The notes under the pieces are model-generated. The model saw only the letters and a program-made list of their open reading frames with translations, did no database searches and was not told the origin of the DNA. A DNA stretch of 64,000 bases. It comes from an uncultured Candidatus Binatia bacterium. GTDB lineage: Bacteria > Desulfobacterota > Binatia > UBA9968 > JAJDTQ01. Where the stretch lies: the NCBI GenBank assembly GCA_965242525.1, contig OZ251459.1, positions 2,688,001 through 2,752,000 of the forward strand. Reading direction: 5' to 3'. The position numbers were made by a program, and so were the translations under genes. Numbering within the stretch: position 1 is the stretch's first letter; each line of letters begins with the position of its first letter. Shown here piece after piece: positions 17,394 through 41,225 of the stretch.

Positions 17394-17439
17394 GCCGCGG
17401 GTGCTATGGTGCAAAAATCACTGAATCCGGGTACACGCC

Positions 17440-18182: not shown

Positions 18183-18187
18183 CGGGA

Positions 18188-19276: not shown

Positions 19277-19292
19277 AGGTTTAACCTCCCTC

Positions 19293-19334
19293 TTGACAGT
19301 TTCTAAAATATCTGATAAAATGAATTTTGTAAAC
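19293..19334. promoter_or_regulatory. Divergent promoter/operator region
   Basis: + strand TTGACA-17-TAAAAT (extended TGn) at 19293-19321; imperfect inverted repeat GTTTCTAAAAT-N14-ATTTTGTAAAC (19299-19334) spans its spacer and -10. Confidence 0.55.
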
Positions 19335-19512
19335 TCAAGCGGCGTCAATTTCCCTTTCCTTGGCCGGAGGGTGGGGAATTCCGTATCCTGTGCATTCATG
19401 GAGGCGACAGACTCGAAATCCTAAAGAGCCGTAGTCTTGAAGTCCCCCTTGAAGTCTCCTATCCTGAAGCTGACTTAGCGCGCCGTTACGAAGACTCGAA
19501 TGGGACCCGGAA

Positions 19513-20748: not shown

Positions 20749-20757
20749 GGCAACTCC

Positions 20758-22671: not shown

Positions 22672-22861
22672 CTCGAGCAACTTGGTAGAGGTCGGCTACG
22701 ACCCCACGAGGCAGATCCTGGAGGTCTATTTCAAGAGCGGCCACACTTACCAGTACTTCGACGTCCCTGAGCGTATCCATGAGGACTTGATGACGGCTGG
22801 GTCTCCGGGTGGGTACTTGAGTCGTGAAGTAAAGGGCAAGTACCGGTACGCCAGGGTTTGA
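22652..22861 (+). CDS. KTSC domain protein
   Basis: PVSSSNL..VGYD, LEV.F.SG..YQYFDVP, A.SPGGY, KGKY; GGAGGAG RBS; overlaps the HerA end. Confidence 0.88.
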   Translation: MIRQPVSSSNLVEVGYDPTRQILEVYFKSGHTYQYFDVPERIHEDLMTAGSPGGYLSREVKGKYRYARV

Positions 22862-23053
22862 TCGAAGGGATAGGCCGTCGCTTCGACTGGTGCCGATTCG
22901 CACGTCCGCAAGGCCAAGTATCAGGTAGCAAGCCTTAGGCGTGAGGCACGAGCTTGGAAGGCCGGATGACGGTCTGTTGCTGCGAACCAATGCTAGGGGA
23001 AGCAGTCCCTAAGTCGGTGGGCTGACTTGAGTCCCCTCGGGTTGTCGAAAGGG

Positions 23054-23917
23054 TCATTGGTTGATCCTGGAGTTTGCCGGATCATCTCCGAGTCTTTCCA
23101 GAGCGTCATGCAGTAGCGTGTCAAGTAACCGTCTCCGCGTCGTTTCTCGTTCCATCTGCACCGCTTCCAGCCCATCGCACAGCGCCATCAGTTCATCGAC
23201 CTTGGTGACAATTCGGCTTTGTTCACTAAGGGGCGGAAGTGGGAAAGGTGCGATGATGGCGTCTTCCGTCCGCAATCTTGGCATTTTCGTTCCCTGCCCG
23301 AGTCGCGTCACGTAGGCGACGAAATCGGGGCGCCGCAAGGCCAAGCCGCAATAGTGTGAGCAAATCGGAAGATACGGACGGAGGGCGACAATCTCAGTCG
23401 TTGAGTAGCCTGGTTCGTCTGCAACAATGACCTTGTTCAAGTACGGTCGCAGCTTTCCATAAAGAATATCGCCAACGCGAAATTCGGATTTGGTACTCTT
23501 GGATTCCCTTCCAGATGCTTGAATCCGAGCGAGCAAGTGCCCGGTGTCTTTTTCAACATCTTCAAGTTCCAAGAGCCACAGGTTTTGATCCAACGATACA
23601 GGCTCCCGTTTACTTCCTGCATCGTACAAGAAAAGCTCACCGAGAGCGCTCCATTCCCATGATCGTGGCAACTCGAAAGGGGCTTCGGCCATGCGAGCCG
23701 GATTGACTTTGCTTTTCTTGATCTCCCCCGTCTTCACCAACCGCGCCTTCTCCTCCGCTATCCGCTTCAGCAACCCCGCTGCCGGCTCATCCTTCGGGTC
23801 CTGCGGCACGAGCTTGCCGCGGACCGCTAAATCGAGGATGAAGCGTCGCAGCCGCTCCACGGACTCTGGTGACTGAATCAGCCGGTCGAAATTGCCGAGC
23901 AGTGCCTCGATGCTCAT
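23054..23917 (-). CDS. hsdS: Type I R-M specificity subunit, single-TRD (half-size)
   Basis: LAVRGKLVPQDP.DEPA, PFELP.SW.W, GDILYGKLRPYL, PLPPLSEQ.RIV; only 287 aa. Confidence 0.85.
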   Translation of the reverse strand: MSIEALLGNFDRLIQSPESVERLRRFILDLAVRGKLVPQDPKDEPAAGLLKRIAEEKARLVKTGEIKKSKVNPARMAEAPFELPRSWEWSALGELFLYDAGSKREPVSLDQNLWLLELEDVEKDTGHLLARIQASGRESKSTKSEFRVGDILYGKLRPYLNKVIVADEPGYSTTEIVALRPYLPICSHYCGLALRRPDFVAYVTRLGQGTKMPRLRTEDAIIAPFPLPPLSEQSRIVTKVDELMALCDGLEAVQMERETTRRRLLDTLLHDALERLGDDPANSRINQ

Positions 23918-24007
23918 GGCGTTCGCGCCTCGCTGCGTTCAGTCTGCGGTCCCAGAAGGTCGAGTCGTTTCCCGGCGTGAGGAGTCAGTTGAGACGGGGT
24001 CGCCATG

Positions 24008-24193
24008 TCAGGTTGCAGTCGAATCCTCGTCCTCGGATCTCTTTGCGGTCTCGATCAGCCGATTCCCGTACTGCTTCTGCATTTCCATGTAGAAGGCCAC
24101 CAACCGCGCAGGATCATGACCAAAACGCGCTGAAATGCGATGCCGCACTTCCCGGATCTCATCGAGGACGGGATCACTCAGGTCCTGTTTCAT
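24008..24193 (-). CDS. Small hypothetical protein (probable partner of a lost PIN toxin)
   Basis: 61 aa, DPVLDEIREVRHRISARFGHD; preceded by an LVTPLEL remnant. Confidence 0.55.
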   Translation of the reverse strand: MKQDLSDPVLDEIREVRHRISARFGHDPARLVAFYMEMQKQYGNRLIETAKRSEDEDSTAT

Positions 24194-24248
24194 TACTTCC
24201 TCTAAAGAGTTCCAGCGGGGTCACCAGCATCTCCTTCAACGCTGTCCC

Positions 24249-24542
24249 CTAAGCGATAGGCTGTAGCGTCAGTCGGAGTCCAAGCGCTTTTGCCACTATG
24301 GCCACGGTGGAAAAAGAGGGATTTCCCTCACTCGACAACGCCTTGTACAAGCCTTCGCGGGTCAGGCCCGTATCCTTGGCGATTTGGCTCATGTTGCGGG
24401 CGCGAGCGGCAGCCCTCAATGCCTGCACGATGAATGCAGGATCGTCCTCCGCCTCTTCCAGGCAGGCTTCCAGGTACAGCCGTATGTCTTCGTCAGTCCT
24501 GAGATATTCTGCCGAGTTCCAACGGGTTGTGGAAAGAGCCAT
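24249..24542 (-). CDS. Addiction-module antidote antitoxin (orphan)
   Basis: W.SAEYL.T.EDI..YL, TGLTREGLYKALS.EGNPSFST; paralogous to 17094-17393. Confidence 0.88.
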   Translation of the reverse strand: MALSTTRWNSAEYLRTDEDIRLYLEACLEEAEDDPAFIVQALRAAARARNMSQIAKDTGLTREGLYKALSSEGNPSFSTVAIVAKALGLRLTLQPIA

Positions 24543-24569
24543 TGGTCAATCCTCCAGTTTGCCTGCCAA

Positions 24570-24684
24570 GGAACGTCTGATCAATTCCGGCTTGAACTCT
24601 CTCTCCCTCTCCCTGCAGGAAAGCGCGTCCTTCGACTTCGCTTCGCTACGCTCAGGACGAACGGGGATGATTGTTCAGGATTCC
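24570..24684 (+). mobile_element. MITE-like element copy E
   Basis: GGAACGTCTGATCAATT ... GATTGTTCAGGATTCC with REP core near 24623-24666. Confidence 0.65.
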
Positions 24685-24733
24685 CTGATTTCTGGACCTC
24701 AACGTACTCAATCGTCCGGGGCAAGGCAAGCCT

Positions 24734-26191
24734 TCACCTCCCCAGCGCCTCCCCCAGCATCGCCCTCAGCCGCTCCCGCAGGGCTGCGGTCTCGGCCTCC
24801 GCTTCGGCCAGTTTCGCCAGCAGTTCTTCCGGGTCGCCGTGGTCGGCTTCCGCGGCGTGGGGGTTCTTGACGTCCAGGTTCCAGCCGCGGGCCGCGACCT
24901 CGTCCGCGTCCACTTTCCAGGCGCGGGGGGTTGCCTTGCGGCCCTTGCGGTTCGGGCCGCCCCACCAGTCCATGCAGGGTTGCAGGTGTTCCAGCTTGAT
25001 GGGCCTGGTCATGGAATAGGCTTTCCGGTCTTCGGGCACGAGGTGCTCGTAGAACCAGGTTTCCCGGGTGGGCTCGCCCTTCTCGAAGAACAGCAGGTTG
25101 GTGCCGATGGAGGCGTAGGGCTTGAACACGGAGTTGGGCAGGCGGACGATGGTGTGGAGGTTGCACTCCTCCATCAGGTGCTCCTTGAGCCGGGTCTTGA
25201 CGCCCTCGCCGAACAGGGAGCCGTCGGGCAGCACCACCGCGGCGCGCCCGCCGGGCTTCAGCAGCCGCACGATCAGGGCCAGGAACAGGTCCGCGGTCTC
25301 CTTGGTGCGGAAGTGCGCGGGGAAGTTGCTCTCGATGCCGTCTTCTTCCTTGCCGCCGAAGGGCGGGTTGGTGAGCACCACGTCCACCCGGTCCTTCCGC
25401 CCCCAGCTCGTGTAGGGCCGCGCCAGGGTGTTGTCGTGGCGCACGAAGCCCGGGTCCTCGACGCCGTGCAGCAGCATGTTGGTGACGCACAGCATGTGCG
25501 GAAGCTGCTTCTTCTCCACCGCGCGCAGGGACGCCTGCATGGCCTGCTCGTCCTCGGGCCGCTTGACGTAGCGCTTGCGCATGTGGCGCAGGGCGCAGGT
25601 CAGGAACCCGCCGGTGCCGCAGGCCGGGTCGAACATGACTTCGCCCGGCCTGGGGTCGATGCGGTCGGCCATGAAGGCGGTGACGGCCCGGGGCGTGTAG
25701 TACTCGCCGGCGTTGCCCGCGGACTGCAGGTCGTTCAGCAGTTGCTCGTAGATGTCGCCGAAGTGCTGGCGTTCGGTGAGGTCGTTGAAATCCACGTCGT
25801 TGATGCGGTTCACCACCTGCCGCATCAACTGGCCGGACTTCATGTAGTTGTAGGCGTCCTCGAACACGTCCCGCACCACGCGCCCCCGGTCTCCAGCCCG
25901 GCCGCCCGGCCGAAGCGCCTTCAGGGCCGGGAACAACTCGTCGTCGATGAAACCCAGCAGCGCGTCGCCGGTGACGCCTTCGGGGTCCGCGGCCCAGGCG
26001 CGCCACCGGAACCGTTCCGGGATCGGGGAAGCGTAGCCTTCCCGCATCAGTTCCAGTTCCCGGTCCTGGTCGTCGATGATCTTGAGGAAGAACATCCAGC
26101 ACAACTGGCTGATGCGCTGGGCGTCGCCGTCCACGCCCACGTCCTGGCGCATGACGTTCTGGACGGACTTGACCAGGGTGCGGACCGACAT
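24734..26191 (-). CDS. hsdM: Type I R-M methyltransferase subunit (N6-adenine)
   Basis: GEYYTPR, DPACGTGGFL, NPPF. Confidence 0.95.
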   Translation of the reverse strand: MSVRTLVKSVQNVMRQDVGVDGDAQRISQLCWMFFLKIIDDQDRELELMREGYASPIPERFRWRAWAADPEGVTGDALLGFIDDELFPALKALRPGGRAGDRGRVVRDVFEDAYNYMKSGQLMRQVVNRINDVDFNDLTERQHFGDIYEQLLNDLQSAGNAGEYYTPRAVTAFMADRIDPRPGEVMFDPACGTGGFLTCALRHMRKRYVKRPEDEQAMQASLRAVEKKQLPHMLCVTNMLLHGVEDPGFVRHDNTLARPYTSWGRKDRVDVVLTNPPFGGKEEDGIESNFPAHFRTKETADLFLALIVRLLKPGGRAAVVLPDGSLFGEGVKTRLKEHLMEECNLHTIVRLPNSVFKPYASIGTNLLFFEKGEPTRETWFYEHLVPEDRKAYSMTRPIKLEHLQPCMDWWGGPNRKGRKATPRAWKVDADEVAARGWNLDVKNPHAAEADHGDPEELLAKLAEAEAETAALRERLRAMLGEALGR

Positions 26192-26194
26192 GGT

Positions 26195-28635
26195 TCAGGC
26201 GGTCTCCCGGTACAGGGCGTCCTGCAGGGTGTGGACGGCCTCCACGAAACCCTCCCGGCCGCCGAACGCCTCGATCAACTGGACCGGCGTGCCCAGGCGG
26301 GTGAACGGCGCGATGCGCAGGACCTCGGTGTCGTCGAGGTTGAGCACCCCCTCGTCCGCGTACTTGTCGAGCAGGGCGTCGAGCACCGACCGGGCCCGGC
26401 CGCCGTACCGGGCGAACACGTCGCGTTTCCGGACGTTGTCCGCCCGTTCCCGGCGGGTCAGCGGCTTGGCGTCGAAGGCCACGTGGCAGATGAGGTCGAA
26501 GGGGTCCAGGTCCTTGCCCAGTTCCCAGGCCATGGCGTCGAGGCTCAGGCCCTCGGCCTCCAGCTCCTCGACCACCGCCTGTTTGCGCTCCGCGGCCTTC
26601 CAGCGCCGGAGGAAGGAGTCGAGGCTGGCGAAGCGCCGCTTCAACGCCTTGCGGGTGAAGTCGTACAGGGACTCGGTGACCAGCTTGCCGTGTTCGTCGA
26701 GGTGCTCCACCCGCTCGGCGACGATGCGCGCCCCTACCCGTCCACATAGACCTTGCGCCGGGCCTCGGAGGGTGGCGGACCCACCGGCGTACAGACGATG
26801 GTCTCGTCCTCGCCCGGTTCCCGCGGTATGGGGTCGTCCTCGTCGTCCGGGGGCGGCGCGTGGTCGGGCGGGGCGACGGGGTCGTCGTCCCCCGGTTCGT
26901 AGATCTGCACCGGCTCCCCGTCGAAGTCCGGGTCGGCGAAGTGGCTGGCAGCCCCGCGGAAGTCCATCAAGGTGAAATAGAACTTGCGCGTGTCCTCGTG
27001 CACGCGGCTGCCGCGCCCCACGATCTGCTTGAACTCGGTCATGGACCCCACCGGGCGGTCCAGCACGATCAACCGGCAGGTCTGGACGTCCACGCCGGTG
27101 GAGAGCAGGCGCGAGGTGGTGACCAGCACCGGGTAGCGGGATTCCGGGTCGATGAAGTTCCCCAACTGCGCCTGCCCTTCGGCGTCCTCTCCGGTGATGC
27201 GCATGACGTAGCGATGGTTCCGGCCCGTCAGGTCGGCGTTCTCGTTGACCAGCGCCTGCCTCATGCGGGCGGCGTGTTCCTGGTCCACGCAGAAGACCAT
27301 GGTCTTCTGGAAACGGTCGCCGCTCTGTTCCAGGAACTCGGTGACCTTGCGGGCCACCAGTTTCGTCCGCTCGTCCAGCACCAGGGTACGGTCGAAGTCC
27401 CGGGCGTTGTAGATGAGGTCCTCCACCTCCCGGCCCTCCCGGTCGAGTTGCCCGGCTACCGGGCGGTAGCCCTCCACGTCCCGGTCGATGTGGACCTTGA
27501 CGACCTTGTAGGGGGCGAGGAAGCCGTCGCGGATGCCCTGTTTCAGGGAGTAGGAATAGACCGGCTCGCCGAAGTAGTGGATGTTGGAGGCGTACCGGGT
27601 CTCCCGGGGCGTGGCGGTCAGTCCGACCTGCGCGGCCCCGGAGAAGTACTCCAGGATCTCCCGCCAAGCCGAGTCCTCCGCGGCGCTCCCCCGGTGGCAC
27701 TCGTCGATGACGATCAGGTCGAAGAAGCCGGGCGAGAACTCGCGGAAGAGCTTCTGCCGCTCCTCCGGTCCGGTGATGGCCTGGTAGAGGCCGAGATAGA
27801 CCTCGTAGGCGGTGTCGATGCGGCGCTTTCCGCCGTGGGCGTCGGTGGAGGTTTCGGCGCCGCGGTCCTCCCGCCGGATGGTCCCGGAGCGGGTGGAGAG
27901 CTTGGCCATGGCCGGGCCGAAGGGCCGGAAGTCGTTGACCATGGCCTGATCGACCAGCACGTTGCGGTCGGCCAGGAACAGGATGCGCTTCCGGCGGCCC
28001 GCCTTCCACAGCCGCCAGATGATCTGGAAGGCGGTGTAGGTCTTGCCGGTTCCCGTGGCCATGACCAGCAGGACCCGGTCCCGGCCCTTGGCGATGGCCT
28101 CCACCGCGGCGTTGACGGCGTTGACCTGGTAGTAGCGCGGGGCCTTGTCGCCGCCGTCGTCGAAATAGTCCTGGAGGACCACCTCCTCGGCCTCGGGGGT
28201 CAGCCCCTTCCAGGCCCGGTAGCGCTCCCACAGGTCGTCCGGCGACGGGAAGGAGTCGAGTCCGAGGGTGGTTTCCCTTTCGCCGCTCTTGCGGGTCCGG
28301 TCGTGGAACACGAAGCCGTCGCCGTTGGAGGAGAAGACGAAGGGGACCTCCAGCGTCTCGGCGTAGTCCAGGGCCTGCTGCATTCCGTCGCCCGCGGCGT
28401 GGGTTTTGTCCTTGGCCTCGATCAGCGCGATGGGGAGGTTGGGCCGGTAGTACAGCACGTAGTCGGCCCGCTTGGCCCTGCCCCGGCTCACCAGCCGGCC
28501 GCGCACGACGATGCGGCCCTTGGTGAAGCCTACCTCCTCGCGGACCTGCGACATCTCGTCCCACCCGGCCTTGCGCAGGGCCGGGGTGATGAACTTGGTG
28601 CAAACGTCGCGTTCGCTGAGTTTCCGCCCGTCCAC
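26195..28635 (-). pseudogene. hsdR: Type I restriction endonuclease subunit R (EcoAI-like), split by a 1-nt frameshift near 26737
   Basis: IEAK nuclease motif, [26 protein letters not shown]. The C-terminus ([10 protein letters not shown]...DPFDLICH...) continues in another frame. Confidence 0.88.
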
Positions 28636-28649
28636 GCCCGGGGCTTCCT

Positions 28650-29711
28650 TCAGGCTTGGCCGCTTCCCCTGTACAGGGAGGAACCCTTGTAGCGCTGGGC
28701 CAGGAACCGGGCGAGGACGCCGAGGATGGCGACCGCGGGCACCGAGAACAGTATCCCGACGAGGCCGAACAGGGCGCCCCCGGCCGCCAGGCCGAAGATC
28801 AGCCAGAGAGGATGCAGGACCAGCCTGGGGTCGATGATGCGCGGGACCAGCACGTAGTTGGCCAGCAGTTGGCCCGCGGCGAATATGCCCGGCACCAGCG
28901 CGATACGGAGCCACTCGGGCCAGTACTGGATGAAGGCAATCCCCAAGGACAGGACGAGGCCGAAGACCGTCCCCACGTAGGGAATGAACGAAAGGACGCC
29001 CACGAGCAGGCCGATGGCGAAGCCGTAGGCCAGCCCTGTCAGGGAAAGCGCGGCGCCGTAGAACGCCGCCAGCGCCGCGCCCAGGAGGAAGGACCCCCGG
29101 AGGAACCCCTTGAGCACGCCGTCGATGTCGCGCGCGATGCCCCGGACCGCCTCCGCATGGTCCCGGGGCAACCCGTCGTCGATGGCGGCCACCACGTCCG
29201 GCCATTGCAGCAGCAGGTAGAAGGCGGTGACCGGCGTAATGGTGAGCAGGGCGGCCGCCTGGAAGACCGCGGCCCCGTTGCCGAGCAGGCTGAGGCCGTT
29301 GACGAGGCCCCAGACCACCGCGCTCATGGTTTCGATCCCGCCCAGCACCCCTTGCTCCAACTCCGCGGCCTGGCTGATGCCCGCCTGGACGAGCAGGGGC
29401 CCGATGAACTTGACTAGGCCCGACAGGAACAGCGGGAGTTGCCGGAGCAGTTCTGCGGTCTGCAATCCCACCGGGGGGAGCACGAGCAGGAACGCAGCGA
29501 GCCCGGCGCCCAGGAATCCCCCCATGACCAGCGCCGCGGCAGGAAGCCGCGGCATCCCGCGCCTTTCCATCCACGCCGCGGCCGGGTCGAGCAGCCAAGC
29601 GATCCCGGCGCCGAGGACGAAGGGAAACAGGACCGGGCCCAGGAGCCAGACCAGCAGCAGCGCCGCGGCCAGCGCCGCCAGCCAGAAGAATGCCTGTGAG
29701 CGCGCGTTCAT
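28650..29711 (-). CDS. AI-2E family transporter
   Basis: [29 protein letters not shown]....VP. Confidence 0.88.
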
Positions 29712-29733
29712 GGGAGACCCGTGGGTTGCCGAC

Positions 29734-30288
29734 TCAGGCCGGGCCGGGGTCCGGCGGCCCGAGCCGCAGCTCCCTTGCGGCGCAGAACCGCGCCACTTCG
29801 CGTTCCAGCGCGGCCACGTCCTCGCAATCGACGATCTCGGATGACTCCCGGTGGTCCAGCGCCGCGCCGGCGAGCCGGTCGGCCCAGCCCCCGGACCCCT
29901 GCAGGAGGTAGATGGGGCGTCCGTGGATCCATCCGAAGCAGAGCTCGGACAGGGAGCCGGCGCCGCCGCCCACCGCCACGATGAAGTCTCCCGCCAGCGC
30001 GGTCAGGACGTTGCGCGCGTGGCCCAGGCCGGTGGGGATGACCACGCCGCACCAGGGGTTGGCCGCGTCCGCGTCCGTGCCGGGGGTGATGCCCACCGTG
30101 AGGCCGCCGGCCCGGGCGGCGCCTCGGGCGGCCGCTTCCATGACCCCGCCGCGGCCGCCGGTGACCAGCGTGACGGAGCGGCGCGCGAGCATCTCTCCGG
30201 CCTGCTCCGCCAGCGCGAGGACCGGGGCCGGGGCGTCCGAGTCCCCGACCAGGGCGGCTTGCGCAAAACGTGCCGCGCCCGGGTTCAC
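29734..30288 (-). CDS. LOG-family (TIGR00725-like) protein
   Basis: TGGRGGVMEA, GGLTVGI.P, TGLGHARN, GGGAGSLSE. Confidence 0.85.
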   Translation of the reverse strand: MNPGAARFAQAALVGDSDAPAPVLALAEQAGEMLARRSVTLVTGGRGGVMEAAARGAARAGGLTVGITPGTDADAANPWCGVVIPTGLGHARNVLTALAGDFIVAVGGGAGSLSELCFGWIHGRPIYLLQGSGGWADRLAGAALDHRESSEIVDCEDVAALEREVARFCAARELRLGPPDPGPA

Positions 30289-30306
30289 CGGTCCGTCCGT
30301 CTGCCC

Positions 30307-31773
30307 TCAGTCCAGCAGGTAGCCGAATTTCTCATGCGCTTTCCGCACCACTTCCGGGCTGGGCGCGTTCACCTTGGGGTACTTGTCGAACCACTCGAAG
30401 GGGCGGCAGGCATCGACGACCACGCGGGAGTTGGTGATGTCGCGGGCCGCGCGCTGCTCCGGGGTCACGCGAGGGTCCGCGGGCGAGGTGCGCATCTTGC
30501 GCAGGATCTCGATGGAGGTCTCGGGGTCGCACCGGGTGAGCATGGCCCAGATCAACTGGTCCAGGTTCGACACGTCGATGTCGTCGTCCACCACGATGAC
30601 GAACTTGCACCCATAGACCACCGAGCCGCAGGTGGACGCCAGCGTGCCCGCCTGCCGGGCGTGGCCGGGATACCGTTGCTTGATGGCGATTCCGTGCATC
30701 AGGCGCGAGGCGCCGACCTCGTGGCACCACACCTGGGTCACGTCCGGGACGCCGGCGTCGGCCAGTTCCTGCTTGAGCATGGCCGAACGCATGATGGCCC
30801 GGTAGCGCGCCATCTCGTCGGGGCCGGCGCCCAGCGGCGGGACCCCCAGGATGACGGGGTCGTTGCGGTGGTAGATGGCGCGCACGTCGAGGGTCGGTTG
30901 CTCGCTGGCGCCGCCGGCGTAGTACCCCGTCCACTCGCCGAAGGGTCCTTCCACCGCGCGGTTGCCGGAGGTCAGGAACCCTTCCAGCACGATCTCGGCG
31001 TTGGCCGGGAAGGGCAGGCCGGTGACCTTGCCCCGCACCACTTCCACCGGAGCGCCGCGCAGTCCCCCCACCACGTCGAACTCGCACACGCCGTAGGGGA
31101 ACTCCGTCCCTGCCACGAAGAACGACATGGGGTCGCTCCCCACCACCAGGGCCACGGGCATGGGTTGGCCCCGGTCGAAGTATTTCTTTCGGTGCATGTA
31201 GGCGTGCTTGCCGGGGACGAACAGCAGGCTCACGGCGTTCCTGCCCTGGACCATGGCCCGGTAGGTGCCCACGTTGATCCACCGTTCCTCCGGGTCGATG
31301 GTCACGCAGAAACAGCCCGTGCCGATGTAGCGGCCGCCGTCGTCCGCGTGCCACTTGGGGGTGGGGAAGAGGGTCACGTCCACGTCGTCGCCGGTGAGGA
31401 CGTTCTCGAACACCGGCCCGTCATCGACTACCACGTGGGGCAGCCGCCGCTGGACCTTGATGTAGTGCTCGAAGAACGCCTGGCTGAGCTCCTGCTTGGT
31501 GAGGTGCTCCGGGAACCCCAGGGTCATGTTCCGGCGCTTGCCGGCAAAGGCGTTGATCATGACCCGGAACCCCTTGGGACATCCGGGGACTTCGTCGAAC
31601 AGGACCGCGGGTCCGTCGTCGGCGCGGATCACCGCGTCCGCGGCCAGCCCGATGTCCTCTTGCCAGCTCGCGCCAGTGACGGTGCGGAGCTCGCCCAGGG
31701 CGTCGGCCCGGGCCATCCATTCGCGCAGGTCCCGGTAGGGGAGCCTGGCTTCCATGGCAGCGGTTGTCGTCAC
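30307..31773 (-). CDS. UbiD-family prFMN-dependent (de)carboxylase
   Basis: DLREW, DGGRYIGT, NVGTYR, EGPFGEWTGYY, VVDDDID..WA. Confidence 0.92.
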   Translation of the reverse strand: MTTTAAMEARLPYRDLREWMARADALGELRTVTGASWQEDIGLAADAVIRADDGPAVLFDEVPGCPKGFRVMINAFAGKRRNMTLGFPEHLTKQELSQAFFEHYIKVQRRLPHVVVDDGPVFENVLTGDDVDVTLFPTPKWHADDGGRYIGTGCFCVTIDPEERWINVGTYRAMVQGRNAVSLLFVPGKHAYMHRKKYFDRGQPMPVALVVGSDPMSFFVAGTEFPYGVCEFDVVGGLRGAPVEVVRGKVTGLPFPANAEIVLEGFLTSGNRAVEGPFGEWTGYYAGGASEQPTLDVRAIYHRNDPVILGVPPLGAGPDEMARYRAIMRSAMLKQELADAGVPDVTQVWCHEVGASRLMHGIAIKQRYPGHARQAGTLASTCGSVVYGCKFVIVVDDDIDVSNLDQLIWAMLTRCDPETSIEILRKMRTSPADPRVTPEQRAARDITNSRVVVDACRPFEWFDKYPKVNAPSPEVVRKAHEKFGYLLD

Positions 31774-31789
31774 GTGTCTCGACCTCGTT

Positions 31790-32674
31790 TCAGGCGGCCA
31801 TGGACTTGATGCGCTCCACCGCCTCGTCCACCAGTTCGTCGGTGGTCTCGTTGGCGCCGATGACGCCCACCCTGGACTTGCCGGTGAACCACGAGCGCTC
31901 CAGGTCCTCGACCTTCTCGATCCGGTGCACGTTGTCGTTGAACGCCCGGGCCACTTCCTCCATGCGGTTGGTCATGCCCTCGGTCCAGCCGAAGATCACC
32001 ACCGCCTCCACGTCCCGGGCCAGGTCCTCGACCTTCGGCAGGCGCTGCAGCGAGTCGATGCACGCGGTGTTGCGGATACGGACGTTGGCGAACCGCTCCA
32101 GCAGCAACGCCATGATCTTCTTGTAGCTCTCCATCCAGAACGTGGTCTGGACGATGACCCCCACGGGCTCGAAGCGGGTCAGGCGGATGTCCTTCACGTC
32201 GTCTTCGTCCTCGACGATGAAGACCTCCCGCTCCTTCTCCGCGGCGATGCCCATGAGGCGCGGAATGCCGTGGTGCGTGCGGCTGCTCAGGATCACCAGG
32301 TGGCAACCCTGCTCCAGCAACTCCAGCTCGGCCTCCTCCTGCTGCACCACGAAGGGGCAGGTGGCGTCCGCCAGGAGCTCCAGGCCCTGTTCGCGCGCCT
32401 TCCGGCGGACCTCCGGCGGCGCTCCCCGGACCCCATAGATGAGCTTCTCGTCCCGGATGGACTCCATGTCGTTGGTGGAGCGGATGCCGTCCTCTTCTTC
32501 CAGCGACTGGAAGGCGATGAAGTCGTTCTCGGGCCTCAGGGACCACACCGCCAACCCGCCGCCGTATTTATCGACCATCTTCCGGTGCATGGCCCCGGCG
32601 CGGTGCACGCCCACGCAGAGGCCGGAGGGGGGGATGCCCTTGGTGTCCGCGAAGCCCACCTTCACCACTTCCAT
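31790..32674 (-). CDS. Divergent IspH/LytB-like [4Fe-4S] protein
   Basis: GLCVGV, DATCPFV, QTT and NTAC give the three cluster cysteines and fold markers; many IspH substrate-binding residues are replaced. Confidence 0.8.
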   Translation of the reverse strand: MEVVKVGFADTKGIPPSGLCVGVHRAGAMHRKMVDKYGGGLAVWSLRPENDFIAFQSLEEEDGIRSTNDMESIRDEKLIYGVRGAPPEVRRKAREQGLELLADATCPFVVQQEEAELELLEQGCHLVILSSRTHHGIPRLMGIAAEKEREVFIVEDEDDVKDIRLTRFEPVGVIVQTTFWMESYKKIMALLLERFANVRIRNTACIDSLQRLPKVEDLARDVEAVVIFGWTEGMTNRMEEVARAFNDNVHRIEKVEDLERSWFTGKSRVGVIGANETTDELVDEAVERIKSMAA

Positions 32675-32744
32675 GAGAACCTCCTCGCTGAAGCCGAACC
32701 GCCGAGGGAGCCCGCGGTTGGCGCCGGCGCCGGGACCGGACGGG

Positions 32745-33785
32745 TTACCCGTGCGCGGGTCGGACCTTCCCGGCCTCGACGGCCACGTCCTTCAGGTATT
32801 CTTCCTGCTCGACGATGGTGTAGAGCGCCAGCGAGCCGTCGTCCTTCACGGGCACGCCGCCGAAGAAGTGGAACGCGTGGCCGTCCCAGTCGTAGAACTC
32901 GTCGCCCCGCTCGTACATGGCCTTCCACTGGTAACCCACCGGGCTCCGGTGCAGGCCGGTGCGCGCGGGAAGCGCGTCTTCCTCTTCCAGGGTCATGCCG
33001 GCCTCTTCCTTCGCCCTTTCTTCCTCCGGCAGCCCTTCCCACATGCGGCGGTAGTTGGGCATGAACTCCTCCGCCCGCACGGTCAACGCCGTGTGCATGT
33101 CCCACCAGGGTCCGTGCCCGGCCACCCGCTCGTCCACCCGGTCCACCAGTTGGTAGATGAGCCGTCCGCCGGCCCGGAGCCGCAGCACCAGCATGCCTTC
33201 GGCCACCGCGGAGATCCTTTCCGGTTCGAGGGCGCAGTAGGTCTCGAAGAACCTGGCGGTGCGCCCCAGGTCCCGGGAGCCGTACACCGCGTGGCTGATC
33301 CGGCCCACCCCTTCCGAGGTGCAGACCTCCATGGCCCCTTCGGGCATGCGGTCGGGGGCCCAGAACTCGTACTGGTTGCCGTCCGGGTCGGCAAAGTGGA
33401 CCACGGTCCCTTCGTCGCCGCCCGCGGCCGTCCGGACCGGGTCGGTGTGCGGGATGTGGTGGCGGTCCAGCCGCCCGAGATGGGCGTCCACGTCCCCGGG
33501 CCGCACGTAGAAACCGCACCGGGGCGTGTCCTCGCCCAGGGGCTTGGCCGGCGGATAGACCTCGGGCTGGAGGAACGCGCCGATGCGGCAGGACTCGCCG
33601 TCCCACCAGAGGAAGCACATGATCGGCATGTCCTTCTTGCGCCCGGCGGTGGTGATGCCCCGGATGGGCCTTCTCGTGATGCCGGTGGCGTTCACCGCCC
33701 AATCCACCCAGGCCACCATGTCGTTGGTGCCGACGATGAAGTGGTCGATCCAGTGGACTACTCCGCGAGGCTCCTGGTCCGACAT
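32745..33785 (-). CDS. Two-domain VOC (glyoxalase/extradiol dioxygenase fold) protein
   Basis: IDHF, F.DPDGNQYEF, ISHAV, MHTAL, FYDWDGHAFH. Confidence 0.75.
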   Translation of the reverse strand: MSDQEPRGVVHWIDHFIVGTNDMVAWVDWAVNATGITRRPIRGITTAGRKKDMPIMCFLWWDGESCRIGAFLQPEVYPPAKPLGEDTPRCGFYVRPGDVDAHLGRLDRHHIPHTDPVRTAAGGDEGTVVHFADPDGNQYEFWAPDRMPEGAMEVCTSEGVGRISHAVYGSRDLGRTARFFETYCALEPERISAVAEGMLVLRLRAGGRLIYQLVDRVDERVAGHGPWWDMHTALTVRAEEFMPNYRRMWEGLPEEERAKEEAGMTLEEEDALPARTGLHRSPVGYQWKAMYERGDEFYDWDGHAFHFFGGVPVKDDGSLALYTIVEQEEYLKDVAVEAGKVRPAHG

Positions 33786-33933
33786 GGGTCACCTCCCTGT
33801 GCTGGCGAGTCGCGGCTCGGCGCGTCCTGGCGAGTTCCATCCTGCCGCCGAGATTGCGATTACCAGAGCGCACCCACGCTGTCAACGATCCCGGATCCCC
33901 CTCCGGGCCTCCGGCGGACGTCCACGTAGCAAA

Positions 33934-34026
33934 GCAAACCCTGAACGACGCTCCCGTTCGTCCCGAGCCTACCGAACTCATCCTCCCGTTCGTCCTGAGC
34001 GTAGCGAAGCGAAGTCGAAGGACGCG
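33934..34026 (-). repeat. MITE/REP copy F
   Basis: CCCGTTCGTCCTGAGCGTAGCGAAGCGAAGTCGAAGGACGCG with a degenerate TIR at 33934. Confidence 0.65.
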
Positions 34027-34201
34027 GTTGAAGTCCCGCCTGCTTCATGCTAACAACCGACGCCTGTTCTTGCAGTAGGGTCACACGGCCCTCCGGTGCG
34101 CGCGCACAGCGTCGCCGGGGCCGTGTGATAGACGGACGGCCCCTTTCGACCAGACCCCATCCCGACTACAAGCGGAGAGAGGTAGAGGAGCAAGGAGTAC
34201 C

Positions 34202-35620
34202 ATGGCAACGCTCTCGGATGTGCAGAAGACCATTTCGGACAACAAGGTGCGGCGAGTGGAGTTGCTCGTCACCGACCTGATCGGTCGGTGGCAGCATTTC
34301 GCGATACCGGCCGCCAGGGTGAACGACAGCCTCGTCAACCGCGGCCTCGGCTTCGACGGCTCCAGCCTGCGCGGCTTCCAGTCCATCGACGAATCGGACA
34401 TGCTGCTGGTCCCGGACCTCGACACCGCGCGCATGGACCCCGTCGAGTCGGAACCGACCATGAAGATCATCTGCGACATCGTGGACCCGATGACGGGCGA
34501 ACGCTACTCCAGGGACCCCCGCTACGTGGCCACCAAGGCCGAGGAGCACTTGAAGGCCACCGGCATCGCCGACAAGGCGTTCTTCGGCCCGGAGCTGGAG
34601 TTCTTCCTGTTCGAGCACGTGCAGTTCGGCCTCAAGATCAACTCTTCGTTCTACACGGTGGAGTCCGACGAGGCCGACTGGAACTCCGGCCGTGACGAGG
34701 ACGGCCACAACCTCGGCTACAAGGTCCCGCCCAAGCAGGGTTATTCCCCGGTGTCCCCGTTCGACAAGCTCGGCGACCTGCGCTGGGAGATGGCCGAGAA
34801 GATGGCCCAGGTGGGAATGGAGTTCGAGGTGCACCACCACGAGGTGGCCACCGGCGGCCAGAGCGAGATCGCCACGCGGTTCAACACCTTGCGCGCCAAG
34901 GCGGACGAGTCCCAGTGGTACAAGCACATCGTCCGCAACGTGGCCAGGGCCGGCGGCAAGTCCGCCACCTTCATGCCCAAGCCCCTGTTCGGGGACAACG
35001 GCACCGGCATGCACGTGCACCAGTCCCTGTGGCTCGGCGACTCGCCGCTGTTCTACGACGAGGACGGCTACGCCCAGCTATCGGAGCTGGCGCGGCACTA
35101 CATCGGCGGCCTGCTGAAGCACGGTCCGTCGCTGCTCGCCTTCTGCGCTCCCACGACCAACTCCTACAAACGCCTGGTCCCCGGGTTCGAGGCGCCGGTC
35201 TATCTGGCCTACTCGCAGCGCAACCGTTCGGCGGCCGTCCGCATCCCCACCTACGAGACCTCGGCGGCCAGCAAGCGGCTCGAATTCCGCCCGCCCGACC
35301 CCTCGGCCAACACCTACCTGGCCTTCTCGGCCATGCTGATGGCGGGCCTCGACGGCATCCAGAACCGCATCGAACCCGGCGACCCGGTGGACACCGACAT
35401 CTACGAGCTCTCTCCCGAGGAGATCGGCAACATCCCCGCGGTGCCGACTTCCATGGAAGAGGCGGTGGCGGCCCTGGGCGCCGACCACGAGTACCTGACC
35501 CGGGGCGGCGTGTTCACGCAGGACGTCATCGACCACTACATCTCCTTCAAGGAGCAGGAGTCCCGCGACGTCTTCCTGCACCCGGTGCCCGCGGAGTTCT
35601 TCCACTACTACCACATCTAG
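34202..35620 (+). CDS. glnA: Glutamine synthetase type I
   Basis: GFDGSS, GPELEFF, HHHEVA, FMPKP..GDNGTGMHVH, NSYKRLVPG.EAP, RNRSA..RIP, adenylylation-site Tyr in DIYEL. Confidence 0.97.
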   Translation: MATLSDVQKTISDNKVRRVELLVTDLIGRWQHFAIPAARVNDSLVNRGLGFDGSSLRGFQSIDESDMLLVPDLDTARMDPVESEPTMKIICDIVDPMTGERYSRDPRYVATKAEEHLKATGIADKAFFGPELEFFLFEHVQFGLKINSSFYTVESDEADWNSGRDEDGHNLGYKVPPKQGYSPVSPFDKLGDLRWEMAEKMAQVGMEFEVHHHEVATGGQSEIATRFNTLRAKADESQWYKHIVRNVARAGGKSATFMPKPLFGDNGTGMHVHQSLWLGDSPLFYDEDGYAQLSELARHYIGGLLKHGPSLLAFCAPTTNSYKRLVPGFEAPVYLAYSQRNRSAAVRIPTYETSAASKRLEFRPPDPSANTYLAFSAMLMAGLDGIQNRIEPGDPVDTDIYELSPEEIGNIPAVPTSMEEAVAALGADHEYLTRGGVFTQDVIDHYISFKEQESRDVFLHPVPAEFFHYYHI

Positions 35621-37025: not shown

Positions 37026-38267
37026 ATGGATCGCTCGCAGTGGGACCGGCTCGACGGGATGCTTGGCGAGGTGCTCCGGACCAACGAGTTCTACCGCCGC
37101 AAGCTCGGCAGCGCCCTGCCGGCGTTGGAGAACCGGGAGCAGTGGTCCCGCCTGCCGTTCACCACCAAGCAGGAGCTGGTGGACGACCAGCTCCGGCGGC
37201 CGCCGTTCGGAAGCGGCCTGACGTACCCACTGGAACGGTACGTGCGGGTGCACCAGACCTCGGGCACCACCGGGCGCCCCCTGTACTGGCTGGACACCGA
37301 CGCGTCGTGGGACTGGTGGGGCGAGTGTTGGAAGGCGGTGTTCCGGGCCGCGGGGGTCGGGTCCGGGGACCGGGTCTTCTTCCCGTTCTCCTTCGGCCCC
37401 TTCGTGGGGTTCTGGAGCGGGTGGGAAGGCGCCCGCAAGGTCGGCGCGCTGGCGGTTTCCGGCGGGGGGCAGAGCACGCAGCAACGGCTCAGGAGCCTCG
37501 TGGACTACGGCGCCACCGTGCTGGTGAGCACCCCCACCTACGCCCTGCACATGGCCGCGGAGGCGCGCCGGGCGGGGATGGATCTGGCCCGGGAGTCGTC
37601 CGTCCGGGTGACCGTCCACGCGGGAGAGCCCGGAGCGAGCATCGCCTCCACCCGGCGGCGCATCGAGGAGGCATGGGGCGCCCGGTGCTTCGACCACACG
37701 GGCGCCACCGAGGTGGGCGCGTTCGGCTTCGCCTGCAACGCGCCCGGGGAAGGGGTGCACGTCAACGAGGACGAGTTCGTCGCCGAAGTGGTGGACGTGG
37801 ACAGCGGCGAGCCCTTGCCGGACGGAGGCCGGGGCGAGTTGGTGCTGACCAACCTGGGCCGGGTGGGGAGTCCCGTCATCCGGTACCGCACCGGCGACCT
37901 GGTGGAGGCGCGCCGCGGTCCCTGCGCCTGCGGCCGCTCCTCCCTGGTGCTGGACGGAGGCGTCCTCGGGCGCGTGGACGACATGGTGGTGGTGCGGGGC
38001 GTCAACGTGTTCCCGAGCGCGGTGGAACGGATCGTCCGGCAGTTCCCCGAGGTCGAGGAGTTCCGTGTGGACGTGCGGGAGACCGACGGTCTGGCGGAGC
38101 TCAAGGTCACGGTGGAGCCGGGGGCGTCGGAGAGTCCCGCGGGGCTCCGGGAGGGCGTGACCCGCTCCATCATGGACAACCTGCGCATCCGCCCGGTGGT
38201 GGATGTAGTGGCCCGGGGAACGTTGCCGCGTTTCGAGCTCAAGGCAAGGAGGTTCTTTCGGAGTTGA
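37026..38267 (+). CDS. PaaK-like aromatic acid--CoA ligase
   Basis: LPFTTK.EL, TSGTTG.P, AGEPG, GATEVG, RYRTGD, GRVDDM..VRGVN. Confidence 0.88.
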   Translation: MDRSQWDRLDGMLGEVLRTNEFYRRKLGSALPALENREQWSRLPFTTKQELVDDQLRRPPFGSGLTYPLERYVRVHQTSGTTGRPLYWLDTDASWDWWGECWKAVFRAAGVGSGDRVFFPFSFGPFVGFWSGWEGARKVGALAVSGGGQSTQQRLRSLVDYGATVLVSTPTYALHMAAEARRAGMDLARESSVRVTVHAGEPGASIASTRRRIEEAWGARCFDHTGATEVGAFGFACNAPGEGVHVNEDEFVAEVVDVDSGEPLPDGGRGELVLTNLGRVGSPVIRYRTGDLVEARRGPCACGRSSLVLDGGVLGRVDDMVVVRGVNVFPSAVERIVRQFPEVEEFRVDVRETDGLAELKVTVEPGASESPAGLREGVTRSIMDNLRIRPVVDVVARGTLPRFELKARRFFRS

Positions 38268-38779
38268 GCGGCCGGGAGATCACCGGAAAGCAGTTGTTGC
38301 GCCTGTGCGTCAACGGCGAGGTCCACGAGGTCGCCGGCCACGTGACCCGAAGCTTGCTGGAGGTGTTGCGGGAAGAGCTGGGGCTCACCGGCACCAAGCA
38401 CGGCTGCGAGTTGGGGGAGTGCGGCACGTGCACGGTGCTGGTGGACGGCGAGCCCATCTACTCGTGCCTGATGCTGGGCCTGGAGGCCGAGGGCCGCGAG
38501 GTCACCACCGTCGAGGGGCTCTCCGTGCAGGGCCGACCGCATCCGCTGCAACGGGCGTTCTCGGACCTCGGGGCGGCCCAGTGCGGTTACTGCATTCCCG
38601 GCATACTGCTGGCGGCCAAGTCGCTGCTGGACAAGGACCCCAGCCCGGCCCGGGCGGACATCGAAGCGGCCCTGTCGGGCAACCTGTGCCGCTGCACCGG
38701 GTATGCCAAGATCATCGAGGCGGTGGAGCGGGCCGCGGCCGACCCGGGGCGCGAGGGGCCGCGGGCAGGGGACGGCTAG
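38264..38779 (+). CDS. (2Fe-2S) small subunit of xanthine-dehydrogenase-family enzyme (HcrC-like)
   Basis: GTKHGCELGECGTCTV, SCL, QCGYC.PG, GNLCRCTGY; TTG start overlaps the upstream stop. Confidence 0.9.
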   Translation: MSGREITGKQLLRLCVNGEVHEVAGHVTRSLLEVLREELGLTGTKHGCELGECGTCTVLVDGEPIYSCLMLGLEAEGREVTTVEGLSVQGRPHPLQRAFSDLGAAQCGYCIPGILLAAKSLLDKDPSPARADIEAALSGNLCRCTGYAKIIEAVERAAADPGREGPRAGDG

Positions 38780-38851
38780 GGCCGTGGGCCGGCCGGGAGG
38801 GCGCGCCGCGGGAGGCCCGGGGACAAGACGCGGCGCGGAGGACGTTCGGGC

Positions 38852-41221
38852 ATGAAGCACAAAGGGTTCTCGGTCATCGGCAAGCCGTTGCCGCGCATCG
38901 ACGGGCCGGCCAAGTGCGCCGGGACCACCCGTTACGCCGACGACGTGGTGTTGCCGCGCATGCTGTTCGCCAGGCTGTTGCGCAGCCCGCATCCCCACGC
39001 CCGGGTCCACGGCGTGCTCACCGGGCGCGCCCTGGAACTGCCGGGCGTCCTGGCGGTCATCACCGGCGAGGACGTCCCGAGGAAGTTCGGCATCATGCCT
39101 TCCACCCAGGACGAGGAGGCGCTGGCGGTGGACAAGGTCCGCTACGTGGGGGACCCGGTGGCCGCGGTGGCCGCGGTCAGCGAAGACGCCGCGGAGGCGG
39201 CGTTGCGCCTCATCGACGTCGAATACGAGGTGCTCGACCCCATACTCTCCATCGAGGGCGCCTTGGAGGCCGAGGACTGCCGCATCCATAGCTGGAACCG
39301 CCGCGCCAACGTCCAGAAGGCCGTCTCCTTCGAGTTCGGCGAAGTGGAAGCGGGCTTCGACGAGGCGGACGAGGTCTTCGAGGGGACGTACTTCTTCCAG
39401 GGCAACACCCACCTGCCCATGGAGCAGTACTGCGCCCTGGCGGACTACGCCCCGGACGGCAAGCTCACCCTGTGGTCCTCGACCCAGACGCCCCACTACG
39501 TGCACCGGGCCCTCGCCAGGGTGCTGGACCTGCCCATGGGGCGCATCCGGGTCATCGCCACGCCGGTGGGCGGCGGGTTCGGGGGCAAGAGCGACCCGTT
39601 CTCCCACGAGATCGCCGCGGCCAAGCTCTCCATGGTGACGGGCCGGCCAGTGAAGATCACCCTCAACCGGGAGGAGTCGTTCTACGTGCACCGGGGGCGC
39701 CACCCGGTGAAGATGTGGCTGCGCACGGCGGTCGAGCGCGACGGCTCGCTCAAGGCCATGTGGTTCCGGTCGTTCCTCGACGGCGGCGGCTACAGCAGCT
39801 ACGGCTTGGCCACGGTCTATTACACCGGCGCGTTGCAGACGGTGACCTACGACTTGCCGGCCTACAAGTTCGAGGGCGTGCGGGTGTTCACCAACAAGCC
39901 CCCCTGCGGCCCCAAGCGCGGACACGGCACGCCCCAGCCCCGGTTCGCGGTGGAAGTGCAACTGGACGAGATCGCCGAGAAGTTGGGGCTGGACCCGGTG
40001 GAGATGCGCCTCCGGCAGGTGGTGAAGCCCGACACGGTGACCGTCAACGGGCTGCGGGTGAGCACCATCGGGCTGCGGGAATGCATCGAGAAGGTGGCCG
40101 AGAGCTCCGGCTGGAAGGAGAAGCACCGTTCGCTGCCCTGGGGCCGCGGCGTCGGCTTTGCCGCGAGCTCCTACATCAGCGGCGCGGGGCTGCCCATCTA
40201 CTGGAACGACATGCCCCATTCCGGGGTCCAGCTACGCGCGGACCGGGGCGGCGGCGTGACCGTCTTCTGCGGCTCCACCGACATCGGCCAGGGCTCGGAT
40301 TCGATCCTGGCCTTTGCCGTGGCCGAGGAGCTCGGGCTCATGCCCGAGGACGTGCGGGTGGTGACCGCGGACACGGACCTCACGCCGGTGGACCTGGGAA
40401 GCTACTCGAGCCGGGTGACGGTGATGACCGGGAACGCCGCCATCGAAGCGTGCGGCAAGCTCAGGGAGCGCCTGTTCCAGGTGGCCGCGGAGCTGCTGGA
40501 CGCGCCCGCGGACGACCTGGAGATGGAGGACGGCCGGGTGCGTTGCCGCAGCCTGCCGGACCGGGGCGTGGGCTTTGCGGAGTGCGTGGAGCGGGCGGAG
40601 AGCCGCTTCGGCACGCTGGGGGCCACCGGCAGCTATCGGCCGCCCCGCCATCCGGGGGACTACAAGGGCGCCGGGGTGGGTCCCACCCCCGCCTACAGCT
40701 ATTCCGCCGCGGTGGTGGAGCTCCACTGCGACGGCGACACCGGCGAGATCCGCATCGACAAAGTGTGGATCGCCCACGATTGCGGCCGGGCCTTCAACCC
40801 CCTCTGGGTCCAGGGGCAGGTGGAGGGAAGCGTTTACATGGCCCTCGGCGAGGCGTTGATGGAAGAGCAGGTCTTCCGCAAGTCGGGGCTGCACAAGATA
40901 CCCTCCATACTGGAGTACAAGAGCCCGACTACGCTGGAGACGCCGCCCATCGAGACCATACTGGTGGAGACCGACGACCCCGAAGGACCCTTCGGCGCCA
41001 AGGAGGCCGGCCAGGGGCCGTTGCTGCCGGTGATCCCCGCGGTGTCCAACGCGGTGTACGACGCGGTGGGCGTCCGGGTGCGCGAGATACCGGTGACCCC
41101 GGACAAGGTCCTGCGGGCCATGGACCAACGGCTCAAGCCGCCGACCGTGCCGGAGTTCGAGTTTCCCGCCCCCATCCGTTGGGCTCCCGGCCAGGGGGTG
41201 GAGGTCCCGCAGAAGAGCTGA
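38852..41221 (+). CDS. Molybdopterin-binding large subunit (4-hydroxybenzoyl-CoA reductase alpha-like)
   Basis: RSPHPHA, GGGFGGK, RGHGTPQ, DIGQG, GSYSSR, GQVEG, GPFGAKEAGQG. Confidence 0.88.
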   Translation: MKHKGFSVIGKPLPRIDGPAKCAGTTRYADDVVLPRMLFARLLRSPHPHARVHGVLTGRALELPGVLAVITGEDVPRKFGIMPSTQDEEALAVDKVRYVGDPVAAVAAVSEDAAEAALRLIDVEYEVLDPILSIEGALEAEDCRIHSWNRRANVQKAVSFEFGEVEAGFDEADEVFEGTYFFQGNTHLPMEQYCALADYAPDGKLTLWSSTQTPHYVHRALARVLDLPMGRIRVIATPVGGGFGGKSDPFSHEIAAAKLSMVTGRPVKITLNREESFYVHRGRHPVKMWLRTAVERDGSLKAMWFRSFLDGGGYSSYGLATVYYTGALQTVTYDLPAYKFEGVRVFTNKPPCGPKRGHGTPQPRFAVEVQLDEIAEKLGLDPVEMRLRQVVKPDTVTVNGLRVSTIGLRECIEKVAESSGWKEKHRSLPWGRGVGFAASSYISGAGLPIYWNDMPHSGVQLRADRGGGVTVFCGSTDIGQGSDSILAFAVAEELGLMPEDVRVVTADTDLTPVDLGSYSSRVTVMTGNAAIEACGKLRERLFQVAAELLDAPADDLEMEDGRVRCRSLPDRGVGFAECVERAESRFGTLGATGSYRPPRHPGDYKGAGVGPTPAYSYSAAVVELHCDGDTGEIRIDKVWIAHDCGRAFNPLWVQGQVEGSVYMALGEALMEEQVFRKSGLHKIPSILEYKSPTTLETPPIETILVETDDPEGPFGAKEAGQGPLLPVIPAVSNAVYDAVGVRVREIPVTPDKVLRAMDQRLKPPTVPEFEFPAPIRWAPGQGVEVPQKS

Positions 41222-41225
41222 GGCC

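Follow-up and report, generated by a model that had tools for sequence, protein, structure and literature searches.

A conserved IspH paralogue of Binatia with a rebuilt pocket, a ferredoxin partner and, in one genus, a UbiD operon

IspHL, an IspH-like protein of 294 residues, is encoded in a 64,000-nucleotide stretch of DNA (C1:2688001-2752000; hereafter the window) of an uncultured Candidatus Binatia bacterium, whose 4.23-Mb genome has roughly 68% GC. The protein has kept the cysteines of the IspH cluster site, and all residues by which IspH binds the diphosphate of its substrate, except for one histidine, are replaced. In related lineages the IspHL gene is followed by a ferredoxin gene, and in the genus of the window it lies in an operon with a gene for a UbiD decarboxylase. 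The best-supported explanation is that IspHL is a ferredoxin-dependent [4Fe-4S] enzyme that retains the cluster site of IspH and has a new pocket for a diphosphate-free substrate. A more specific reading, in which IspHL works as a ferredoxin-dependent [4Fe-4S] reductase on a non-diphosphate substrate within a UbiD operon in this genus, has in our judgement slightly more in its favour than against it.

Fold, cluster cysteines and substrate pocket of IspHL

IspHL matches the Pfam family LYTB (PF02401) with 144 bits and falls below all seven NCBIfam IspH equivalog cut-offs (for example, 135 against 276, and 125 against 187.85 for TIGR00216). The genome contains exactly two LYTB matches, namely IspHL and a canonical ispH about 204 kb away. 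The latter scores 324.5 bits against LYTB, passes the equivalog models (487 against 420 and 316 against 187.85) and carries the canonical motifs. Because the canonical ispH passes the equivalog cut-offs and IspHL does not, IspHL is not the housekeeping enzyme. This agrees with the original prediction, made from the DNA alone, which would have had to be given up if IspHL were the only ispH of the genome. The prediction had also proposed a PF02401 profile search and a structure prediction, and both place IspHL in the IspH/LytB fold. [quoted passage not shown] According to this model, IspHL is a member of the fold.

The residues of IspHL were mapped by phmmer alignment to E. coli IspH chains, and a MAFFT alignment of the 91 sequences, consisting of 72 canonical IspH proteins and 19 IspHL-family members, is in agreement. 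The correspondence between E. coli IspH and IspHL is as follows:

Cys12, Cys96 and Cys197 of IspH: Cys20, Cys106 and Cys205 of IspHL
Thr167 and Thr168: Thr177 and Thr178 (QTT kept)
His124: His134 (kept)
His41 region: SLRP(E/D)
His74: Arg83
GHPEVEG: THHGIPR, with Glu126 lost and the aligned residue being Gly or Arg by aligner
Ser225-Ser226-Asn227: Glu-Gly-Met
Ser269: Glu276

In IspH, the diphosphate of HMBPP is bound by His41, His74, His124, Ser225, Ser226, Asn227 and Ser269, and Glu126 of the HPE motif is catalytic and supplies a proton. The PDB titles of the matched IspH structures name E126 and T167 mutants. The three cluster cysteines and the QTT motif, which the original prediction had recognized by eye, are kept in both alignments. 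Its list of pocket substitutions stands for His41, His74, Glu126, the Ser-Ser-Asn loop and Ser269, but not for the whole GHPE motif, since His124 survives as His134. Because all diphosphate ligands except His124 are replaced, HMBPP is not the expected substrate.

These differences are characteristic of the family. The canonical sequences keep His74 in 70 of 72 cases and His124, Ser225, Asn227 and Ser269 in 72 of 72 each. Cys20, Cys106 and Cys205, which would hold a putative [4Fe-4S] cluster, are all kept in 18 of the 19 IspHL-family members, and Arg at the His74 position and a His-Gly insertion are both present in 19 of 19. Furthermore, a family alignment of 17 sequences shows no variation at Arg47, Arg83, His134, His135, Gly136, Arg139, Asp207 and Asn275, and Arg83 is also kept in the two most distant relatives. 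Because Arg47, Arg83 and Arg139 are invariant there, the alignment suggests that these arginines receive an anionic group of the substrate, a handle such as a carboxylate.

Family, selection and ferredoxin partner

Among 1.84 billion cluster representatives, five full-length proteins rise above the continuum of ordinary IspH proteins, which lies at 118 bits or below. The identities to IspHL are 74% for P0125, 45% for P0129, 39% for P0134, 37% for P0145 and 33% for P0147, and P0125, P0129 and P0134 likewise stay below the NCBIfam IspH cut-offs. In a FastTree phylogeny of the 91 sequences, 15 Binatia-type members, including P0125, and four other relatives form one clade with a support of 0.998. 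An IspHL orthologue is found only in this genome in a phylum sample of 301 genomes, in 15 genomes of a class sample of 201, all of one order, and in 37 genomes of an order sample of 61. Within the order sample, IspHL is present in all 28 genomes of the window's genus (this genome included), in four of five genomes of family f100 and in five of 28 genomes of family f2. In the samples searched, the IspHL family consists of one order of Binatia and four distant metagenomic relatives.

The best of the intermediate matches examined from the phylum sample (G033) was rejected as a family member, its open reading frame translations revealing an ordinary IspH in a cmk-ispH-rpsA setting. One relative (L059; G444:C427:468-1732) carries IspHL as two overlapping pieces, covering residues 1-220 and 84-294, as might arise from a frameshift, a duplication or a faulty assembly. 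A metagenome scan with P0134 gave one uninformative 2.5-kb contig, on which a small membrane protein is read from the sequence downstream and no ferredoxin is present.

IspHL is 87-94% identical across the genus. For IspHL, the Nei-Gojobori ratio of nonsynonymous to synonymous substitution rates (dN/dS) comes to 0.13 among genus members (55 pairs) and to 0.08 among the sister lineages (16 pairs); comparisons of the genus with the sister lineages again give 0.13 (67 pairs; 10 pairs saturated). Because dN/dS is this low and the pocket substitutions are family-wide, the pocket represents a new, maintained state. The original prediction had named neutral decay of these residues as a way in which it could fail, and the purifying selection seen here rules such decay out.

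The surroundings of IspHL were compared in 51 loci from species genomes, 23 of them with at least 87% identity to IspHL (the genus) and 28 with 71-77% identity (the sister lineages). In 26 of the 28 non-genus loci, a gene for a Fer2-type ferredoxin of 93-100 residues starts 6-137 bp after IspHL. The two exceptions are L061, which ends at IspHL, and L040, which has 1.5 kb of room and no ferredoxin match. In this genome, an orthologue of the ferredoxin (67% identity) is encoded at C1:3538537-3538818 (L063:7534-7818, minus strand), about 0.8 Mb from IspHL. Across the 61 order-sample genomes, which include related and hence not independent genomes, IspHL and the ferredoxin occur together in 34, IspHL alone in three (completeness 93, 76 and 91%), the ferredoxin alone in none and neither of them in 24. 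By synteny and co-occurrence, the ferredoxin is a conserved partner of IspHL. Its 27 sequences share three invariant cysteines in the pattern HDCTEA(I/V)CGTDRV ... RL(A/G)C, that is, C-x4-C-x2-D ... C.

The ferredoxin gene of this genome is set among genes for a PEP-mutase-family protein, a LigB-type dioxygenase and an SDR protein, a setting that gives no clear lead. In a sister subclade (loci L043-L060), the genes that come after the ferredoxin gene are an OCD/mu-crystallin-like gene (in 10 loci), one for a 4Fe-4S dicluster protein of 301 residues (in 7 loci) and one of the CMD family, and NMT1-type binding proteins are common near IspHL. The OCD-like and 4Fe-4S neighbours were rejected as parts of a conserved core, since their best matches in this genome (44% and 35%) are not clear orthologues. 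With the OCD-like protein as query, tblastn gives 19 matches in this genome, where one OCD-family gene (L116) adjoins a UbiD gene.

The UbiD operon and its proteins

In the window, IspHL is one of five genes arranged head to tail, all of them open reading frames with strong third-position GC:

32745-33785, minus strand: VOC-like protein, 346 residues
31790-32674, minus strand: IspHL, 294 residues; PF02401 match
30307-31773, minus strand: UbiD decarboxylase, 488 residues, PhdA-like, of the family dependent on prenylated flavin mononucleotide (prFMN); UbiD_N, UbiD and UbiD_C domains
29734-30288, minus strand: SLOG cluster 4 / TIGR00725 protein, 184 residues, nucleotide- or cofactor-binding, Rossmann-like; PF18306 and TIGR00725
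28650-29711, minus strand: AI-2E family transporter, 353 residues, the fifth gene; PF01594, 137.7 bits

Four co-directional genes with gaps of 70, 16 and 18 bp had been described originally; their coordinates and spacing are reproduced, and the AI-2E gene, after a further 22 bp, is added as the fifth. A GGAGG Shine-Dalgarno sequence is located 6 nt before the ATG of IspHL. A terminator scan found no terminator-like sites on the coding strand between the operon genes, and a promoter scan found no sigma-70-like promoters in 28300-34300.

The UbiD and SLOG genes directly follow IspHL in all 23 genus loci, and the AI-2E gene is present in 20 of them. When 28 genus loci are centred on UbiD, IspHL is directly upstream in 26 and separated from UbiD by an insertion of 1.3-1.5 kb in the other two, so that it lies within 1.6 kb upstream in all 28; SLOG is downstream in all 28 and AI-2E within the flank in 24. 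In 12 of the 23 genus loci the VOC gene precedes IspHL, at distances of 29 bp to 4.5 kb. AI-2E is the least conserved of the five proteins, with an identity of 51-62% in most loci and 84% in the nearest relative. SLOG orthologues of at least 73% identity are confined to the genus, the best elsewhere reaching 42-50%. In the fetched flanks of the 28 sister-lineage loci, some of which are short, there are no matches to UbiD, SLOG, AI-2E or the 346-residue VOC protein. Because of these genus and sister locus counts, IspHL, UbiD and SLOG, usually with AI-2E, are regarded as a stable genus-level unit with VOC as a loose neighbour. The original idea of a conserved route shared with the UbiD and VOC enzymes thus survives for IspHL-UbiD-SLOG in 28 of 28 genus genomes, but fails in all 28 sister loci and, with 12 of 23 loci, for VOC. 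In the same way, the neighbourhood survey proposed with it finds co-occurrence with UbiD throughout the genus and none outside, where the ferredoxin is the partner.

The operon UbiD matches UbiD_N with 31.1, UbiD with 211.9 and UbiD_C with 101.4 bits. It passes only the general model TIGR00148 (265.4 against 244.85) and stays below the equivalog cut-offs for phenylphosphate carboxylase beta and VdcC (287 against 469 and 275 against 650). The protein contains NVGTYR and EGPFGEW, which we take to be the catalytic Arg and Glu-Glu motifs (N-x-G-x-Y-R and E-G-P-F-G-E), and 15 orthologues all have Asn167, Arg172, Glu275 and Glu280. Among solved structures the closest is 7PDA (378 bits, E 5e-112, residues 13-470; next best 193 bits), identified in PMC10850782 as PhdA of Mycobacterium fortuitum, a decarboxylase of phenazine-1-carboxylic acid. 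A predicted IspHL-UbiD complex scored 0.00 (mark 0.32), which gives no verdict and speaks neither for nor against binding.

Against 26 UbiD genes, the genome carries a single ubiX (C1:406765-407310), about 2.3 Mb off; the window itself is without ubiX, as originally noted. Other paralogues in the genome are about 47-48% identical to the operon UbiD. The remaining 25 UbiD loci show no LYTB or SLOG cluster-4 gene among their scanned neighbours, and the flanks are varied, with transporters, cupins, Mo-hydroxylases (3 loci), CoA ligases and amidohydrolases. Up to 77 first-look UbiD candidates are seen among relatives in the order. UbiD was not met in the open-access literature found on Binatota or Binatia.

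The SLOG protein matches PF18306 (SLOG cluster 4) with 127.5 bits and TIGR00725 with 117.3 bits (cut-off 106.9), and lies below the LOG cut-offs (22.6 against 27 for PF03641 and 40.6 against 96.35 for TIGR00730). Its PDB relatives include 1RCU (E 2e-22), 6Y01 and 2IZ5 (E 3.6e-17), a molybdenum cofactor carrier protein from Chlamydomonas, whereas LOG enzymes match at 1e-9 or weaker. The earlier name of LOG-family protein is corrected accordingly to a TIGR00725 member of the SLOG superfamily. The VOC-like protein reaches 19.9 bits against the PF00903 glyoxalase cut-off of 20.6 and has no sequence match in the PDB. Its nearest Atlas clusters are 94-96% PF00903. Homologues of 70-94% identity and about 344 residues, many with a precomputed PF00903 assignment, are named VOC family in records of Binatia, Zixibacteria and Methylomirabilota. 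The VOC-like protein appears from these matches to belong to a widespread, well-conserved 344-residue VOC family. Close relatives of the operon genes in public records come mostly from Candidatus Binatia metagenome-assembled genomes.

On its 3' side, the operon is bordered by a type I restriction-modification system, partly within a lower-GC stretch. Positions 16500-26200 of the window have a GC content of 55-64%, against about 68-70%, and contain hsdM (24734-26191). An hsdR-like gene (26195-28603) lies just past this stretch and directly downstream of the operon, and an hsdR gene is common to this locus and that of the nearest relative (L026). On the 5' side come glnA, in divergent orientation, a gene for a formyltransferase-like protein and a Mo-hydroxylase cluster of the xanthine-dehydrogenase type. 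This cluster (37040-42245) encodes 2Fe-2S, molybdenum cofactor-binding and FAD subunits and is separated from the VOC gene, upstream of it, by about 3.3 kb. Elsewhere in the genome, similar Mo-hydroxylase genes are found beside three UbiD loci (L115, L116 and L127).

Mechanism, alternatives and known systems

In the mechanism that we propose, Cys20, Cys106 and Cys205 would hold a [4Fe-4S] cluster with one open iron, to which a small substrate would bind through a hydroxyl or similar group. The dedicated small Fer2-type ferredoxin would deliver two electrons to IspHL, which would cleave a C-O bond by reductive dehydroxylation or carry out a related reduction or dehydration. By analogy with IspH, reductive C-O cleavage is the most likely chemistry. 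Thr177 and the new His134-His135 pair may stand in for the lost Glu126 in proton supply. In this genus, the IspHL gene would have left its ferredoxin, kept about 0.8 Mb away, and joined the UbiD/SLOG/AI-2E operon, the proteins of which probably share one small carboxylic acid as their target, likely a (hetero)aromatic or unsaturated one. In its most specific form, the proposal is that IspHL and the Cys3-Asp ferredoxin make up a so far undescribed two-component reductase that applies the organometallic [4Fe-4S] chemistry of IspH to a non-isoprenoid, such as a carboxylic acid bearing an allylic or benzylic alcohol, feeding or fed by the prFMN decarboxylase in this genus, in what would be a new pathway, either catabolic or for a small molecule. 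We put this form forward tentatively, as somewhat more likely to be wrong than right.

The functional coupling of IspHL to the PhdA-like UbiD is about evenly balanced. It is suggested by the tight spacing and the conservation in 28 of 28 genus genomes, and it is argued against by the restriction of the link to one genus, with a UbiD gene near IspHL in 0 of 28 other loci. Several further observations weigh on the same side or against the proposed enzyme itself. The UbiD orthologues of family f2 (70-78% identity) have no IspHL, SLOG, AI-2E or VOC gene nearby at any of 12 loci, and their neighbours vary (aldo-keto reductase, zinc-dependent alcohol dehydrogenase, NMT1-type ABC transporter, amidohydrolase_2); because these orthologues sit in such varied contexts, the operon could be a recent juxtaposition. 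In the ferredoxin, whose cluster and donor role are putative, all 27 sequences have an invariant Asp at the expected third Cys ligand. The retained Arg and His residues of IspHL could also bind a monophosphate, and the metagenomic relative P0145 has Tyr in place of the first cluster Cys, with Arg83 and the His-Gly insertion kept. The locus counts fit well with an explanation in which IspHL is a genuine ferredoxin-dependent Fe-S enzyme and its adjacency to UbiD is a genus-specific accident of gene order, or reflects shared regulation of unrelated pathways. The ferredoxin still kept elsewhere in the genome and the very varied contexts of the 26 UbiD genes point in the same direction. However, the arrangement is kept in all 28 genus genomes though AI-2E there has diverged, in most loci to 51-62% identity, the 16-bp and 18-bp gaps imply one transcript, and the two genomes with insertions of 1.3-1.5 kb still hold the gene order, so that we consider this explanation doubtful, although it deserves serious attention.

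IspHL might instead serve the prFMN of UbiD by converting a hydroxy-prenyl monophosphate to dimethylallyl phosphate for UbiX, with the SLOG protein as a cofactor carrier. The adjacency to UbiD, the single ubiX for 26 UbiD genes, the resemblance of SLOG to the molybdenum cofactor carrier protein and the conserved Arg47, Arg83, Arg139 and His134/135, which could bind a monophosphate, are all in keeping with such a role. However, no IspHL is seen in 23 of the 28 genomes of f2, a sister family, although close UbiD paralogues are present in every one of the 28; this genome has no IspH-like or SLOG gene at its remaining 25 UbiD loci; and ubiX is about 2.3 Mb away. Outside the genus, where ubiX was not searched for, IspHL adjoins ferredoxin, OCD-like and 4Fe-4S proteins and never UbiD. 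Since IspHL is absent from most of the UbiD-rich relatives, prFMN supply is a poor fit; the prenyl-donor supply entertained in the original prediction is not borne out, a role of IspHL in prFMN supply is unlikely, and the version with a SLOG carrier strikes us as quite improbable. More improbable still is that IspHL is a paralogue without catalysis or in decay, such as a redox sensor or a relic. IspHL has no known function and P0145 lacks a cluster Cys, but dN/dS of 0.08-0.13, the 87-94% identity across the genus, the invariance of the pocket substitutions and the conserved ferredoxin partner are at odds with it. Least credible is a second, unusual HMBPP reductase: such an isozyme would account for the common fold, the common cluster cysteines and the retention of Thr167 and His124, but six of the seven substrate ligands and Glu126 are replaced, every equivalog cut-off is missed and a canonical ispH is present.

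The proposed ferredoxin-dependent [4Fe-4S] enzyme with a new pocket can be set beside several known systems. IspHL resembles IspH in its three-domain fold, the cluster cysteines, Thr167/Thr168 and His124, and probably also in its dependence on ferredoxin. In contrast, His41, His74, Glu126, Ser225, Ser226, Asn227 and Ser269 are replaced, a 3-residue insertion containing His-Gly is present, the identity is only 22-31%, the equivalog cut-offs are failed and IspHL is not the ispH of its genome. PhdA is the best solved relative of the operon UbiD, and a match in substrate is putative. PhdA pairs with the UbiX-type protein PhdB and is not known to pair with an Fe-S enzyme. The SLOG protein resembles the molybdenum cofactor carrier 2IZ5 and T. 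maritima 1RCU and differs from the LOG cytokinin phosphoribohydrolases, whose family cut-offs it does not reach. Mycobacterium tuberculosis also has two LytB-family genes, and PMC4550268 presents LytB1 and LytB2 as two homologues of the same enzyme, whereas the second copy here has lost the substrate-binding residues. Among the best-ranked open-access literature matches, no paper was found that treats IspH and UbiD together, and none describes a repurposed IspH in its title or the start of its abstract. Among the new results are the ferredoxin partnership of IspHL and the confinement of its UbiD link to one genus.

IspH, whose iron-carbon chemistry is unusual, is a target for drugs and herbicides and, to our knowledge, has been treated as an enzyme of one reaction. 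If the proposal is true, a fold so far linked to a single reaction would have in IspHL its first repurposed member, and a selected paralogue in which the cluster site is kept and the whole pocket is rebuilt would show that the chemistry of IspH has been recruited for another substrate. The ferredoxin of its own makes this recruitment testable, and the PhdA-like UbiD of the operon provides a concrete handle on the substrate. For annotators, IspHL is a warning that an IspH-like protein can stand beside a canonical ispH with the same fold and cluster cysteines and a different pocket.

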